Source of the DNA: Candidatus Hermodarchaeota archaeon
GTDB lineage: Archaea; Asgardarchaeota; Thorarchaeia; Thorarchaeales; Thorarchaeaceae
Length of the DNA stretch: 50,865 nucleotides
Assembly: GCA_048885865.1 (NCBI GenBank)
Contig: JBHLLF010000020.1
Location: 1-50,865, forward strand
Direction: 5' to 3'
This document shows positions 1-6,138 of this stretch, one piece after another (the first letter of the stretch is position 1; each line of letters begins with the position of its first letter). Below the pieces are notes generated by a model. It had not been told where the DNA came from, ran no database searches, and saw only the letters and a list, made by a program, of their open reading frames with translations. The position numbers were made by a program, and so were the translations under genes.

Positions 1-76
1 GCTCGTTTTGTTGCACGATTTGCTGAATTAGTCGAGTCTGTTTTCGGACTTGATATCATGTGAATGATACCGTTTT

Positions 77-101
77 GCTATCTCGAAAGCCTAATAAGCA
101 G
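77..101 (+). repeat. Direct repeat copy 1 (GCTATCTCGAAAGCCTAATAAGCAG)
   Basis: Identical 25-mer at 77, 2064 and 3466; 22/23 match at 1569. Confidence 0.95.
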
Positions 102-301
102 GAACCTGCGAACTAGTCTTTGCATAAAGGCGAATTTGAATAAAATCATTATTCCTGTTTCCATAGTGATACTATTACGTATTCGATTCAAGGATGCCTT
201 TTGTTGAGAATTTATGGAATCAATTAAGAATTGGGATCTTCACAAATCTAGAGCATCTTCTGGGATAAACTTCAATAACAGAATTAGTATATATTGTCAT
301 A

Positions 302-1399
302 GTGAATTCGGTGTGGCGTGTAACATCAGTTGCAATTCTACTAGTAATTGTTTCAATACCCTTTCTTGCATATACCACCATTAATCGATTAACTCTTGAC
401 GCCGCTATTGCTACTACAGATCATCCGCCAATAGTCATTTCGGATGACTCAAATTTCACTGAACAAGGGTGGCCTGGGGATGGCTCTGTCGCACATCCCT
501 TCATCATTGAGAATATACGGATTTTTACAAACACCTCTTGTATCTCAATTAGCAATACTACTGTTTATTTCACCATTAGAAACTGTCAGCTGGAGTCCTA
601 TTGGTTTGAAAGCACAGCACTTGGCTACAATGCTATCGAACTCATAAATGTCGAAAACGGTATCATCGAGGACTGTGATATTGATGGGAATGCAGCGTGT
701 GTCCTTTTGGTCGAGTGCGAGAATACTAACATGACTGGCAACGATGTACGGTCACAACAAAGTCAAGGCATCTACGCAATTCGTGTTGATAATTGTGCGT
801 TTTCTAGTAATGTGATGTTGAACTCAGGAATTGATATGATAGACGCAACGAACACAAGTATTGTAGACAATCAAATTACAGACTCTCAATCGACTGGTAT
901 GCATCTCAGTAATGCATCCAATTTAAGAATCATTTCAAACTCAATTCACTCAAGCAATAGTCATGGAATGCACCTGGATGAAATATCACAGATTGAGGTG
1001 CTACAAAACAATATTGCTGATTCTGGTGCCTATGGCATAACTGCTTTTGCGATGAACTGTAAATTCATTGGAAACATCCTTTCTGACAACTCAGGGTATG
1101 GGATTGATTTGGAAGGATCTGGAAATGTGCTTTATGAGAATTACTTTCTAAGAAACGGAGTGTCCAATGCACGCGATCGAGGAACAAATAACACTTGGGA
1201 TGACTCAAATCAATTAGGCAACTATTGGGATGATTATTTCGGATTTGGCACATACTTGATTGATGGTTCATCAGGACACGAAGACAGATTTCCGAGGACA
1301 TATCCAGGAATCATACCTCTTCTATATCCTATACTCATAGCATTGATTGTAGGGGCGGCAATACTTGGCTTGTTTTTATTTAGAATGAGGAGAACTTGA
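302..1399 (+). CDS. Secreted/membrane-anchored NosD-like right-handed beta-helix protein
   Basis: N-terminal signal/TM; GWPGDGS..PFIIEN motif; Asn-rich beta-helix repeats; N.WD....GNYWDDY...D.FP motif; C-terminal TM plus basic tail. Confidence 0.85.
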   Translation: MNSVWRVTSVAILLVIVSIPFLAYTTINRLTLDAAIATTDHPPIVISDDSNFTEQGWPGDGSVAHPFIIENIRIFTNTSCISISNTTVYFTIRNCQLESYWFESTALGYNAIELINVENGIIEDCDIDGNAACVLLVECENTNMTGNDVRSQQSQGIYAIRVDNCAFSSNVMLNSGIDMIDATNTSIVDNQITDSQSTGMHLSNASNLRIISNSIHSSNSHGMHLDEISQIEVLQNNIADSGAYGITAFAMNCKFIGNILSDNSGYGIDLEGSGNVLYENYFLRNGVSNARDRGTNNTWDDSNQLGNYWDDYFGFGTYLIDGSSGHEDRFPRTYPGIIPLLYPILIALIVGAAILGLFLFRMRRT

Positions 1400-1568
1400 A
1401 CCGTTAATGAGCAAGAAATTCAGAATCAAGAATGAATGTGATGTGACTCATTCACAGACATGCAATGCTATCCTCAAGCACAGGTTGTAGTGCTCGTTCT
1501 GGAGGTATTACAGGAAAACAAACGACCTCGGTCAAAGCCAGTCACTCCTATATAATACGCAAGTCATT

Positions 1569-1591
1569 GCCATCTCGAAAGCCTAATAAGC
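1569..1591 (+). repeat. Direct repeat copy 2 (GCCATCTCGAAAGCCTAATAAGC)
   Basis: One mismatch to the other copies over 23 bp. Confidence 0.9.
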
Positions 1592-1787
1592 GAACTCCTG
1601 CCATTTAATATATACTTAAACGCACATCTAAATAAAATCTTCAATTCCAAACCTCCTTCCATAGCGAGCCCTTGATTGGCTAGATCCAAAGATGTGCAAA
1701 GAACCAAGGTCAAAGGGAAATCAATTGGACTCTCTGGATCAACTCACTAAAGGAGTAACTTGTCAACAATATATGGGAAAAGGCTCA

Positions 1788-2003
1788 ATGAGCAGAGTGC
1801 CCAAATGGGCATATCTTATGAGTGCGGTTCTAATTGTGATAGCCTTTCCACTTGCTTGGGCCATTGTAGATGTTTTCCTACGCATGCTTCCTCAAGGATT
1901 GGACATTCAAGGACACCTGTTGTTTGTCATATTACCTTTAGGTATACTTAGTCTACTAATAGTGGTGATAATGGCAATACTACTGACGAGGAAACGGGAG
2001 TAG
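1788..2003 (+). CDS. Small two-TM membrane protein (hypothetical)
   Basis: Two hydrophobic helices and a basic C-terminus. The upstream part of the track ORF (from 1692) overlaps the repeat-associated leader, so a start at 1773 or 1788 is more likely. Confidence 0.6.
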   Translation: MSRVPKWAYLMSAVLIVIAFPLAWAIVDVFLRMLPQGLDIQGHLLFVILPLGILSLLIVVIMAILLTRKRE

Positions 2004-2063
2004 TCACTACATCATGACCAGAGATTTGCGTTTCTTGAGAGGAGAATATGCATGCTGTTTACC

Positions 2064-2088
2064 GCTATCTCGAAAGCCTAATAAGCAG
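2064..2088 (+). repeat. Direct repeat copy 3
   Basis: Identical to copy 1; near-identity continues about 50 nt downstream and similarity about 90 nt. Confidence 0.95.
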
Positions 2089-2284
2089 GAACCTGCGAAC
2101 TAGTCTTTGCTTAAAGGCGAATTTGAACAAAATCGTCATTGCTATCTCCACAGTATTTGTAGTGATGTGGACGAGGATGAATAAACGATTATTCATTGAA
2201 ACCGACCCGATATGCTAGCAGCCTTTTCGAGGCAACTCCCTTTTTCTGAGAAACTCTGCATGCATGGATGCAGTCTTTTCATAG

Positions 2285-2758
2285 TCAGTCGCTAGTCAAG
2301 TCACGACGTATCCGTTCATAAGTCTCAATCAGAAGGGGATTCAGCTTCTTGGCTCTTTCCAAATATTCACGTGCTTTGTCTATCTCTCCCAACCTTCTCA
2401 TCACACCACTCAGAGCAAACCATGATGCAGCATCATTTGGCTGCATCTTCAGAGCCCTCTCATACACATCTGCTGCTTTCCTGTCTTGCCCAAGCATCGA
2501 ATAGACTACACCCAAATTCGTCCAAATGCCCTGCAAATGAGGACCAAGTTCAGATGCCCTTACTAAAGCCTCTTCTGCCTCCTTTGGGCGTTTTGTTGAT
2601 ATTAGTAAAGTTCCAAGATAGAACCACGCTTCAGGTGACTTTGGTTCTATGCTGATCAGATACCTTAGCTTACGCTCAGCTTCGAAGAATTTCCCATCCT
2701 TTAGCAGCTGAGGTATTTGATTGAGTAGATGCGTTATTGACGGTTCATTCTTGTCCAT
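2285..2758 (-). CDS. TPR-repeat protein
   Basis: Repeated 34-aa units (EAWFYLG..., IWTNLGVVY..., SWFALSGV..., A...P). Confidence 0.85.
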   Translation of the reverse strand: MDKNEPSITHLLNQIPQLLKDGKFFEAERKLRYLISIEPKSPEAWFYLGTLLISTKRPKEAEEALVRASELGPHLQGIWTNLGVVYSMLGQDRKAADVYERALKMQPNDAASWFALSGVMRRLGEIDKAREYLERAKKLNPLLIETYERIRRDLTSD

Positions 2759-3110
2759 ATTTCAGCCACGTTTATGATTCTAAGGAATCACCACATATGA
2801 AAGTTTTCGCCTTAGAGTTTCACTTTCACTAGCCTTGAGCTGAAACCATATTTAATACACACACTTGATAGTTTGATACGTTTTCAAATGACCCAGTATT
2901 ACTTTAGACGCATATCTGAACAAAATCTTCAATTCGAAACCTTCTTCGGTACTAAACCTTTGGCTGGCCAAATGCATAAGTACGAAAACAGTGAAGGTCA
3001 CAAGGAAAAGAGTTGAACTCAATGCATAGACCACCAAAATGGGCTCAAGTGTTATTACGAACCAGTCCTACTATCCAATATCAAAGAGAGTTTCTGGATG
3101 GTTTCCGAAG

Positions 3111-3452
3111 ATGGGCTCCGAGTCGCAATTTCGATTATTAAGAAGGGAAATAACACAAAAACGGGTGAGGATCAGTGCGGTTCTCGTGTTTCTAATTGTC
3201 TATGTTCTATGGATGTCGACTGCTGCAAAATTCCTTCACGAATACCTAATGAATGGCGTCTGGTGGAGCAGCGCACCTCCAGGGTCCTTGTTCCCAATCC
3301 CATGCGGCCCTGGTCACTTAACGATGCTAGTGATAGCCAATCCCGTTGACACCTTCATCTTTCGCGCACTCTTCCAGTCCGGTTTATGGCTGGTGTTCAT
3401 CATTCTGTCAATGCTATATATTCTGTCCCCGTACACTATCTCAATGGTATAG
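3111..3452 (+). CDS. Small membrane protein (hypothetical)
   Basis: Two hydrophobic segments with a Pro/Gly loop; start 3111 or 3039 uncertain. Confidence 0.55.
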   Translation: MGSESQFRLLRREITQKRVRISAVLVFLIVYVLWMSTAAKFLHEYLMNGVWWSSAPPGSLFPIPCGPGHLTMLVIANPVDTFIFRALFQSGLWLVFIILSMLYILSPYTISMV

Positions 3453-3465
3453 ACGGCAAACCACT

Positions 3466-3490
3466 GCTATCTCGAAAGCCTAATAAGCAG
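3466..3490 (+). promoter_or_regulatory. Direct repeat copy 4, containing the probable BRE/TATA (CGAAAG-CC-TAATAA) of rpl13e
   Basis: TAATAA at 3481-3486 preceded by a purine-rich BRE-like CGAAAG, about 30 nt upstream of RBS GGTGA (3515-3519). Confidence 0.7.
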
Positions 3491-3519
3491 TCCTCAGGCT
3501 GGCGTGCCGAATTTGGTGA

Positions 3520-3984
3520 TTGTCCTTGACCTTTGAAATAGCAGCAGAACCCCTCGTTAAGTCGCCCGGTAAGGCAGTTCCACGACGCGGACGAGGCTTC
3601 AGTATTGATGAAACAAAGAAGGCTGGACTGGCGATTGAAGAGGCACGCCGAATGGGGCTCATAATAGATGTCAGACGGAAGACGACCCATGAAGAAAACG
3701 TGGAATCTCTAAAGCAGTATATCAAGGACCTAGATGAACTTGTGGCTGAGATGGCCAAGATTGATGTAGCTAAGCCAAAACGGACAAAGAAGGATGACAA
3801 GGCGGTAGAAGAGCTGTCATCATTGCGAGCGGTCCAAAAGGATGAGGCACAGAAGCTAGTAGAGGCTGGCATAAAGTCATTATCCGATTTGGCATATTGT
3901 GAGATTGATCAAGTGGCTAAGAAAACGGGCCTTGATGAAAATCGAATCACAGCCATGGTGAAGGCTGCCTTAAAGAAGATCTGA
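3520..3984 (+). CDS. rpl13e: Ribosomal protein L13e with C-terminal helix-hairpin-helix-like domain
   Basis: P.VK...R.GRGFS..E...AGL....AR..G..ID.RRKT...ENV..L signature. Confidence 0.9.
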
Positions 3985-3999
3985 TATTGCATCAGTTCA

Positions 4000-5118
4000 T
4001 TGATGGAGGCGATAGAGCTGGAGTACAACCGGCTCATCAAAGCTTTGGAAAAGCCAATTGATGTGGGACGACCGGTAATTCTGCCAGACTTCTATGTTGA
4101 TCATTTTGTTATTGCAGGACAATTTGAAGAGTTCATTGATGGTCTGACAGCATTGGCGAAGCAAGGTGGAGGAAATCTATTAGGCAACAAGCAGTTCCTT
4201 CGTCGAGGAGGTAACTCTGTAAACACGGCATCAGCTCTTCTCATGCTTGGTCTGGATCCTGTACTTATCATCACGACAGATGATTATGGCTCAGCGATAC
4301 TTCCGACACTCGTTAGTCCCGACCTCGATCTCAGTCATGTTCACACTGACGGCAGATTATCTTCTACAGTATCAATTGAGCTTGAACATGAGGGTAGACG
4401 AGTGAATCTAATGGTGAGTGATAGTGGCTCTGCTGCAGAGTTCTCATTCTCAGACCTCACCGAGAGGGATTTGTCAGCAATCCAAGCAAGTAATCTAGTC
4501 GCTCTACTTAACTTGAACCATAATCCCGATGCACCTGAACTTGCACATGACCTCTTTGAGATGGTCGGAACCTCATCCAAAGCCATCAGATTCATGGATG
4601 TTGGTGACCCATCAGGTAATTTGGATATAGTGGAACCGCTAGCAAGAAACATCTTGGCTGAGGGCTTGGTTGACATTGTGAGTCTGAATGAGAATGAAGC
4701 TCGTTGGTTTGCATGGGCTATCAGCGGAAAGAACAGCCGTTGGGATCACCTGTCTTCAGACCCAGAACACTGGCTATCCGCTGCCAAATTGGTATCAACA
4801 GAAACAGGAACGAGGATTGAACTGCATACTCAACATTTCACTGCCTCAATCTTGGAAGACAAACTCACTGTGGTACCTACATTTGACGTGGTAAGTCGGA
4901 TTGTGTGTGGGGCCGGAGATGCATGGAATGCTGGGGATATCTATGGCACACTTCAGAAACTGGAGGACTTGGACCGACTATCACTTGCCAATGCAGTTGC
5001 AACACTATACGTTTCCTCTGTGGACGCCTCTCACCCCACTCGTGAGGAAACAATAGCTTTTCTCCGTTCCAAACCTAGCTTTGAGTCTCTCGGCGAAAGA
5101 CTTGTTAACCGTGTTTGA
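4000..5118 (+). CDS. PfkB/ribokinase-family kinase
   Basis: GGNSVNTA, NENEA and GAGDAWNAG motifs. Confidence 0.85.
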   Translation: MMEAIELEYNRLIKALEKPIDVGRPVILPDFYVDHFVIAGQFEEFIDGLTALAKQGGGNLLGNKQFLRRGGNSVNTASALLMLGLDPVLIITTDDYGSAILPTLVSPDLDLSHVHTDGRLSSTVSIELEHEGRRVNLMVSDSGSAAEFSFSDLTERDLSAIQASNLVALLNLNHNPDAPELAHDLFEMVGTSSKAIRFMDVGDPSGNLDIVEPLARNILAEGLVDIVSLNENEARWFAWAISGKNSRWDHLSSDPEHWLSAAKLVSTETGTRIELHTQHFTASILEDKLTVVPTFDVVSRIVCGAGDAWNAGDIYGTLQKLEDLDRLSLANAVATLYVSSVDASHPTREETIAFLRSKPSFESLGERLVNRV

Positions 5119-5160
5119 TACAATCGAGCAACTACAAATGGAAAATAGGTGTACGTCTTC

Positions 5161-6138
5161 TTGGAATTAGAGCGTGTTTTGACAAAACTCAAATTCGATG
5201 ACACTGTCAGCGGATACGCTCTAATCACGAACAATGGTCAGCCATTTCTTTCTTTTTCTCTTCCTGATGAGGTTCTTCCGCAAATACAAGGTGCTCTGCG
5301 GATTCATTCAGACTCTTTGAAGATGATGAATGTCATGACAGGAGAAGGCACAGTCGTCTTGTCTAGAGTAGATGTGAACTGGGTACTTGCAGTGCTCTTC
5401 CTGCCAGACTTGCAGCTTGGAGTGGCTCTTCAGAAGGCAACGGAAGTAATCAACTTGATGAAAAGTGTCATTCTACCTCCACCGCCTACCCCTGTTCCGC
5501 AACCAGAGCCGCCTCTCCGAGTTCAAGTAGAGGAGTCCGCGAGAACTATGGCTGCAGAAACTGTCATCGAACCAGCTCTGCCTGAAACAGAGCTGGAGCC
5601 AGTAGCTGAAATTGAACCTGAACCTGCTATAGCAGAACCGGAAGTGGAGATTAGACATGGTTGTGTTGTCTTTCGTGGAGAGAAGTATAATGAAACTATG
5701 ACTCTTGAATCCGATCTCAACAAAGAAATCAAAGCCAGATTTGCGAATATTGGAATCGATATCCTGCTGATGGCTGACGAGAAACGGACAATCTTCAAGA
5801 TTGCTGAGAGTCTTGGCCGTGGAGTCGAAGAAGCGCTTGGAGTAATTCGCTGGTGTGTACCCAGAAAGATAGTTCGGGTGGAGTGTCCTGATGCCCAAGA
5901 AACTGGTGCCGTTGAGATTATTGAGCTACCAATCTTTGAGGGCGAATTAAAGAAAGCAAAGAAAGAACATCGAGATCTTCTATCTCTATGCGATGGAAAT
6001 CGCTCTCTTCAGGAAATTTCCCAAGAACTAGGTATTCCATACTTCCAGGCTCTGCAAAGCATACTTCCCTATCGGGGCAAAACGCTACGTTTCATACGCA
6101 AAAGCAAGAAGATGGACACCGAACCAGAGGTGTCATAA
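5161..6138 (+). CDS. Roadblock/profilin-like N-domain + Pro/Glu linker + tandem winged-helix protein (paralog of 8078-9070)
   Basis: GYALITNNGQP-type N-domain; LCDG.RSL.EIS..LG wHTH; clear similarity to 8078-9070; RBS AGGTG before TTG 5161. Confidence 0.7.
   Translation: MELERVLTKLKFDDTVSGYALITNNGQPFLSFSLPDEVLPQIQGALRIHSDSLKMMNVMTGEGTVVLSRVDVNWVLAVLFLPDLQLGVALQKATEVINLMKSVILPPPPTPVPQPEPPLRVQVEESARTMAAETVIEPALPETELEPVAEIEPEPAIAEPEVEIRHGCVVFRGEKYNETMTLESDLNKEIKARFANIGIDILLMADEKRTIFKIAESLGRGVEEALGVIRWCVPRKIVRVECPDAQETGAVEIIELPIFEGELKKAKKEHRDLLSLCDGNRSLQEISQELGIPYFQALQSILPYRGKTLRFIRKSKKMDTEPEVS

Follow-up and report, generated by a model that had tools for sequence, protein, structure and literature searches.

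The rpl13e core promoter as a probable joint of a gene-cassette array in Thorarchaeota

We analysed a window comprising the first 50,865 bases of contig C20 (JBHLLF010000020.1) of a Candidatus Hermodarchaeota archaeon (assembly GCA_048885865.1, labelled G000 here; 3.58 Mb, 117 contigs, 87% complete), at the start of which a short direct repeat divides the DNA upstream of the ribosomal protein gene rpl13e into a row of small units. The repeat, the 23-mer GCTATCTCGAAAGCCTAATAAGC, was found on the + strand at 77-99 (copy 1), 1569-1591 (copy 2, with 1 mismatch), 2064-2086 (copy 3) and 3466-3488 (copy 4), resulting in copy-to-copy spacings of 1492, 495 and 1402 nucleotides (nt). This confirmed the repeat positions and unit lengths of the original prediction, which had been made from the window alone; 0 copies were expected by chance in 100 shuffles, compared to the 4 observed. 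The possibility that the 23-mer is a promoter motif dispersed over the genome was ruled out, since the whole assembly contains these four copies only at up to two mismatches.

The units carry unrelated accessory genes in AT-richer DNA, as had been described. The array has a GC content of 41.2% (genome, 46.3%) and ranks among the lowest 0.12% of 3.4-kb windows. Because the window begins at base 1 of its contig, the array is truncated at its distal end. The first feature (1..63, +), cut by the contig start, consists of the last 20 codons and the stop codon of a gene for a 2-oxoacid dehydrogenase acyltransferase-like protein (fam39). This fragment is homologous to the 3′ end of a 265-amino acid (aa) gene in the genomes G008, G015 and G010 and at the loci L070 and L052; fam39 is itself a cassette in relatives, and the G008 copy matches Pfam 2-oxoacid_dh (7.5e-20). 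Cassette gene 1 (302..1399, +) encodes a right-handed beta-helix (NosD-like) protein (Pfam Beta_helix 3e-22, NosD 2.2e-18) with hydrophobic segments at its N- and C-terminus, and the beta-helix cassette is 95% identical to that of G015 at the nucleotide level. Cassette gene 2 (1692..2003, +) encodes a 103-aa membrane protein without a Pfam match. It belongs to fam4, a paralog family with several members per array, and shares 47-62% amino acid identity with array genes of G016, G013, G015, G010, G014, G008, G012, G007 and L062. The last unit harbours a TPR protein gene on the opposite strand (2285..2758, −; Pfam TPR_2 4.3e-24) and a cassette gene for a 137-aa membrane protein (3039..3452, +; no Pfam match). 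Among the arrays compared, the latter was found in the window only; it has one paralog on contig C55 (44% amino acid identity over 108 residues). The accessory genes of this and related arrays mostly encode membrane or surface proteins. At least two cassette genes lie on the opposite strand, the TPR gene of the window and a gene with two transmembrane segments in L093, and most others are co-oriented with the repeat copies.

The array is followed by rpl13e itself (3526..3984, +; Pfam Ribosomal_L13e 3e-12). Alignment places its start at the TTG at 3526, and relatives have ATG (ATGAGCTTCGA) at the aligned position. This TTG (window 3520-3530) is found in the window genome and G015 compared to ATG in relatives (TCCTTGACCTTTGAA versus TCTATGAGCTTCGAA), and thus represents a start-codon change in a ribosomal protein gene. 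The C-terminal extension of L13e (window 3800-3984) is helix-hairpin-helix-like and conserved across the family, with weak Pfam matches to HHH_5, AF1548-like_C and DUF4332 (E about 1e-3). The backbone of the locus consists of genes for an aminotransferase, a GlnA-like protein and a DUF72 protein, a variable region of 0.4-7 kb, rpl13e, and genes for a PfkB kinase and a winged helix-turn-helix protein. In the window's own genome, the distal part of the locus sits on contigs C116 and C92.

Each of the extra copies of the 23-mer (hereafter the core) is followed by a leader of ~85 nt and then usually by one accessory gene. The leaders belong to types A to D, all of which can be aligned with each other. 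With an nhmmer leader profile, type A was found at 100..181 (+; E 3.8e-12) and again at 2087..2166 (+; E 7e-13), where no co-oriented gene lies directly behind it, and type B at 1592..1679 (+; E 2.7e-13), which contains a second TATA-like box, TCTAAATAAAA. The leader at 100..181 is 91% identical to 2087-2154 and 92-96% identical to leaders of G015 and G009. The proposal that copies 1-3 continue into a shared leader and copy 4 into host sequence therefore held for copies 1 and 3 and for copy 4, which runs into the rpl13e 5′ region, but not for copy 2, whose leader has diverged (63%). An orphan type-B leader without a core is located at 2880..2967 (+; E 8.1e-10) and is followed by a 13-codon remnant of a fam4-like start (2975-3016); the corresponding direct repeat, 1616-1739 and 2904-3027, has 70% identity. 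In the window genome, the profile matches this locus only. In relatives it matches every extra copy, and weak, decayed matches are found before more distal genes. The conserved B-type module extends past the core for ~165 nt and takes in the first ~14 codons of the fam4-type gene, and gene bodies are swapped at its end: window and G015 break at 1732, and all four metagenome runs introduced below diverge after 3022. A small open reading frame in the leaders (YLESLISRNL...) was considered and rejected, as it is open in copies 1 and 3 only and closed or start-less in copies 2 and 4.

Upstream of the core, ~20 nt are semi-conserved in most copies. At the 3′ end of cassette 1, this flank contains a ‘−31’ box (TATAATACGCAAG...; 1551..1568, +). 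Together with the core and the leader it makes up a set of three boxes alike in sequence and ~31 nt apart, TA(A/G)AC(G)GCAA, TAATAAGCGG and TTAAA(C/G)GCA, the last of which (+31) is confined to cassette copies. In L052, the type A leader has been kept (4/70 changed) although the core has decayed.

Next we asked what the core represents. The motif was searched in 60 related genomes, among them 36 other genomes of the same family. It was found in 25 of these 36, belonging to 8 genera, and in none of the genomes of other families. In every case examined, one copy lies ~50 nt upstream of the rpl13e start, and it is almost always the sole copy. The aligned rpl13e upstream regions show an invariant TGCCATCTCGAAAGCCTAATAAGC and, after ~10 variable nt, a box of moderate conservation that ends in GCCGA(A/G) and lies ~20 nt behind the core. 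A Shine-Dalgarno-like GGTG box and ATGAGCTTCGA come next. Within the invariant part, CGAAAG and CCTAATAA, which also form the BRE/TATA-like part of copy 1, keep their position ~50 nt before the start codon across the 8 genera, as would be expected of a transcription factor B recognition element (BRE) and a TATA box. A similar box, GAAA(R) followed by YYTAATA or TTTAAA, is present in tRNA upstream regions of the window genome, and the tRNA-His upstream region carries GGGAAACCTAATAAGCC. Because of the rpl13e alignment and the matching tRNA boxes, we read the 23-mer as the putative rpl13e core promoter, that is, BRE and TATA box plus eight further conserved upstream bases. Copy 4 is then the native BRE/TATA region of rpl13e, where the original prediction had placed it. 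Analysis with alifold revealed no conserved RNA fold in the rpl13e 5′ region and no conserved RNA structure in the leaders, only a 3-bp stem, and we therefore regard the 23-mer as a DNA-level element. An Rfam scan of positions 1-6000 gave just a sub-threshold SNORD14 match at 2769-2880 (E 0.3), which was discarded.

We then compared the locus between relatives. In the window's genus, 1 to 5 copies of the core are present, all of them co-directional and located in the interval that separates the DUF72 gene from rpl13e; extra copies occur sporadically in other genera. Only one core, and no cassette bounded by repeats, is found in G011, G003 and G004. Where cassettes are present, their content and order differ between relatives, which rules out a fixed gene order as an explanation of the repeats. 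The window has the order fam39, beta-helix, fam4, TPR plus orf3039, rpl13e. In G010 the beta-helix cassette directly precedes rpl13e, and in G008 fam87 is followed by fam39 and rpl13e. The locus L070, from another genus, has fam39, fam87, rpl13e, which is the reverse of the G008 order. Even G015, the closest relative with 94% backbone identity, has an additional unit of 387 nt and different last two cassettes. The beta-helix cassette was found with three different neighbours on each side and fam39 with at least six different right neighbours, the joint always being the core. The comparison confirmed a real row of cassettes whose make-up varies between species and whose units are delimited by copies of the rpl13e core promoter.

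Other genera contain one more cassette gene, for a soluble protein of ~97 aa (MLT.WYP.PKTKEV...), located behind a type A leader in L052 (3215-3510) and directly 5′ of the rpl13e core in L059 (about 250-560). On contig C375 of G007 (L043, 1-4434), a core copy, together with a fam4 gene and a C-type unit (87% identical to that of G015), adjoins not rpl13e but genes that map to contig C38 in the window genome. The rpl13e locus of G007 is contiguous on another contig, and these pieces come either from a second site or from mixed strains in the bin. When G000 was scanned genome-wide for short repeats at kb spacing, no second such array was found. Contigs C14, C5, C7 and C42 contain clusters of repeated 18-mers at kb spacing with several 18-mers in register; these look like tandem paralogous genes or repeated domains, unlike the short isolated repeats of the array.

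Compared to G010, the beta-helix cassette is 99.6% (1395 nt) and 100% (114 nt) identical, whereas the adjoining rpl13e backbone shows 84.8-87.9% identity, and the switch is located at the 23-mer. Similarly, fam39 is 83-90% identical at the nucleotide level between genera whose rpl13e genes are 62-68% identical, and the type A leader at 2087..2166 is 96% identical to that of G009 compared to ~64-65% for the backbone. The switch of identity at the repeat indicates that cassettes have been transferred between species and even genera. In addition, a derived T (GCTATC) is common to copies 1, 3 and 4 and absent from all five copies of G015, which indicates concerted change, a sign of conversion, among the copies of an array.

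To see the junctions in other assemblies, we checked Logan contigs from four metagenome runs of three studies. In X4 and X5, from two studies, a joint 1571->3469 fuses the beta-helix cassette to a divergent rpl13e. A joint 93->1567, from metagenome contigs of the same sediments, represents a variant without the beta-helix cassette. At the joint 2083->2909, the 23-mer of copy 3 runs straight into a complete B-type leader. In this dominant metagenome variant (depth 25-29, compared to 4.9 for the window form), 32 nt of leader replace the 825-nt segment 2084-2908 with the A leader and the TPR gene. Further contigs show other neighbours for the same cassettes. Cassette content and order also vary among strains of the same sediments. 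A joint 1637->75 (X2, depth 5.9) was considered as a circle and rejected, as it reads as a gene-less unit of another strain, [core][46 nt of B leader][core][A leader].

An empty and an occupied site could be compared in another genus. L059 has the structure [gene][core][rpl13e], whereas its counterpart L084+L093 reads [gene, 96%][core][462-nt cassette][core′][rpl13e, 90%]. According to variant bases in this pair, the crossover took place beyond position 15 of the 24-mer, on its right-hand side. In the comparison of G012 with G004, G005 and G007, the last base of the core goes with the right-hand side. The combined crossover interval is CTAATAAG.

These data suggest that the rpl13e core promoter doubles as the joint of a gene-cassette array, a reading to which we give a probability of about 0.62. 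A cassette unit would consist of a leader of ~85 nt, usually one accessory gene, and a ~20-nt flank with a promoter copy. Such cassettes would be gained, lost and relocated through recombination within the promoter copy, possibly via a circular or otherwise free intermediate. Recombination in the promoter copy at the 3′ end of a cassette would leave two cores plus an intact rpl13e promoter. The rpl13e-proximal core copy was always found complete, and core plus ~20-nt flank are present at the 3′ end of each cassette; the rpl13e promoter would always remain intact because every cassette ends in a promoter-region copy of its own. The logic of target restoration would be the same as that of tRNA-targeting integrative elements. 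The outcome would be a fast-turnover, AT-rich island of mostly membrane and surface protein genes exchanged between Thorarchaeota species and even genera, in which the copies may act as promoters for the co-oriented cassette genes.

Several observations weigh against this interpretation. Every genome compared is a metagenome bin, and the G010 contig is a scaffold with 100 N, although its cassette junction is free of gaps and was seen again in X4 and X5. No simple circular junction, with the core between a cassette's own ends, was found among the contigs examined, which drop rare forms. The crossover interval comes from two cases only, and not all breakpoints lie in the core: those at 1732 and 3022 are homologous positions in the first codons of fam4-type genes, ~165 nt past a core, and the replacement of 2084-2908 is a further exception. 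No match to PF00589 or PF00239 was found in G000 or G010, other recombinase families not having been searched. No recombinase is linked to the array, its distal border being formed by the DUF72, GlnA-like and aminotransferase genes and its proximal border by rpl13e and PfkB. Contigs C116 and C92 contain no recombinase either, and the cassette-free G011 has two integrases. Both carrier genomes, G000 and G010, are 87-88% complete, and the absence of a recombinase is therefore unproven. DUF72 as a hidden recombinase was rejected, since it belongs to the conserved backbone in cassette-free genomes too. The original prediction of repeated site-specific insertion at an att-like core is thus partly supported: the cassettes are variable and bounded by the core, and an empty/occupied pair exists, whereas no recombinase was found and some breakpoints lie off the core.

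Regarding the recombining activity, we favour host homologous recombination on the identical tract of 23-45 bp, at slightly less than even odds, because no recombinase was found in the two carriers or at the borders, no hairpin and no viral copy of the core (0 matches to the 18-mer core in a viral contig scan) were detected, the derived T is shared and some breakpoints lie off the core. An unlinked or unrecognised site-specific recombinase ranks below it, with odds of about one in three. Such a system is kept alive by the phased boxes, by a type A leader that is strongly conserved in L052 and by modules retained where the gene lies on the opposite strand.

In its strictest form, the site-specific alternative would be a true integron analogue, in which an unlinked or unrecognised recombinase acts on the core and the phased −31/+31 boxes and exchanges strands within the TATA segment. 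The spacing of the three similar boxes, with +31 only behind cassette copies, would suit it, as would the 4/70 changes in the L052 leader beside a decayed core, the module retained with a gene on the other strand in both the window (TPR) and L093, the single orientation of all copies and the restriction of the crossover to CTAATAAG. However, a uniform crossover along the core would give the same interval about 12% of the time for the two cases (calculated), no tyrosine or serine recombinase was found in G000 or G010 while the cassette-free G011 has two, neither an inverted-repeat architecture nor a single-stranded DNA hairpin (z-scores −0.5 to +0.7) was detected, and the derived T in three copies points to homology-driven conversion. 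We consider this alternative unlikely.

Even less probable is an island grown in place, in which a promoter-leader-gene unit was duplicated in tandem and its copies then diverged, were differentially lost and were exchanged through flanking homology. The repeats would in that case merely be retained promoters that play no part as joints or in mobility. The homology of all leader types, the several fam4 paralogs per array, the decayed cores and leaders of distal units, the breakpoints outside the core and the lack of a recombinase agree with such a history. It does not explain why unrelated genes (NosD-like, 2-oxoacid_dh-like, TPR and several membrane families) follow the same module, why G008 and L070 have reversed orders, why identity changes from 99.6-100% to ~85-88% precisely where the core lies, how one cassette acquired three left and three right neighbours while always being joined at the core, or the empty/occupied pair. 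An assembly or binning artefact, with collapsed repeats or contigs of different strains joined at the 23-mer, would fit metagenome-assembled genomes as the only data, a window beginning at a contig end, several relatives' arrays broken at or near repeats and the 100-N gap in C87 of G010, but was ruled out to the point of being very improbable because independent assemblies from three studies (the four Logan runs) recover the same and alternative junctions, and also in view of a window contig that runs through all four copies, arrays in more than 10 independently assembled genomes and in contigs of the Joint Genome Institute, and a 23-nt identity that is shorter than both the 77-nt overlap at the G010 gap and the Logan assembly word length of about 31.

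The G010 gap, at about 1396-1495 of L040 in rpl13e orientation, is flanked by that overlap as a 77-nt duplication, and the two contigs joined there thus overlap and could be combined.

A broader interpretation, which we put forward tentatively and regard as rather unlikely in full, would be a hitherto undescribed gene-capture system of Thorarchaeota. Its recombination site would be the TATA-box region of a ribosomal protein promoter, flanked by phased boxes at intervals of ~31 nt. The activity would come either from an unrecognised recombinase family or from general recombination on the ~25-bp tract, and single-gene cassettes for surface and membrane proteins would circulate between genera, each arriving with its own strong promoter copy. 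Little is understood of gene flow in Asgard archaea, and the array would represent a cassette platform built on a host promoter, suggesting that cassette arrays can arise without integron parts. It offers a concrete locus at which gain and loss of surface-protein genes can be followed at strain level in sediment metagenomes, and, when Thorarchaeota become available in culture, its promoter-equipped natural landing pad could serve in genetic work. Should a dedicated enzyme exist, it would form a new recombinase-site pair with the core; if host recombination suffices, a conserved island of ~25 bp in otherwise diverged genomes could channel horizontal exchange.

Finally, we compared the array to known systems. 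Full-text literature searches retrieved no description of such an array, only classical archaeal integrons and papers on Asgard mobile elements. With integrons, including sedentary chromosomal integrons, clusters of attC sites lacking integron-integrases (CALINs) and archaeal integrons (Ghaly et al. 2022, PMC9668308), the array shares several traits: its cassettes form a row, are small, mostly carry one gene, mostly point the same way and are set apart by a single repeated site; close relatives differ in cassette content and order, with the joints at that site; cassettes are exchanged horizontally; and one fixed chromosomal point anchors the array. The integrons that we found reported in Archaea are all of the classical IntI/attC type. 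In contrast, no IntI or other tyrosine recombinase (PF00589) was found at the border of the array or in the 87%-complete assembly. The repeated site is not attC, as it has neither R/L boxes (GTTRRRY) nor a folded hairpin: single-stranded folds of the core+leader modules gave the above z-scores for both strands, and an inverted core copy within type A leaders was no better than in shuffles. Moreover, the cassettes of an integron depend on a single promoter (Pc), whereas each cassette here is preceded by its own BRE/TATA-like copy, which may serve it as a promoter, and the leaders hold a second TATA-like box. Integrons are anchored at attI, whereas this array is anchored at an essential-type ribosomal protein gene. 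Because no tyrosine or serine recombinase and no attC-like hairpin were found, the array is not an integron. With protein genes separating copies that are 1492, 495 and 1402 nt apart, it likewise lacks the regular period of ~60-75 nt of clustered regularly interspaced short palindromic repeats (CRISPR), in line with the original prediction that neither system is present. Unlike insertion sequences or miniature inverted-repeat transposable elements, the units are not bounded by inverted repeats; the repeat is direct, 23-45 nt long and identical to the host promoter.

Integrative elements without an integrase can accumulate in tandem at one att site, for instance the cis-mobilizable elements (CIMEs) next to integrative and conjugative elements (ICEs) in streptococci, and islands with nested partial-tRNA repeats are found in organisms such as Prochlorococcus. 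As in these cases, direct repeats of the target bound each unit, the host gene stays intact, and units without an integrase of their own pile up in tandem. They differ in that the target here is a BRE/TATA promoter and not a tRNA or the 3′ end of a gene, the units (0.4-1.5 kb, one gene) are far below the typical size of an island, and no cognate element bearing an integrase was identified, including in the viral contig scan. The observation itself is solid, and by comparison the array appears to behave like an integron array or a tandem accretion at an att site, although the defining parts of integrons, IntI and attC, were not found.

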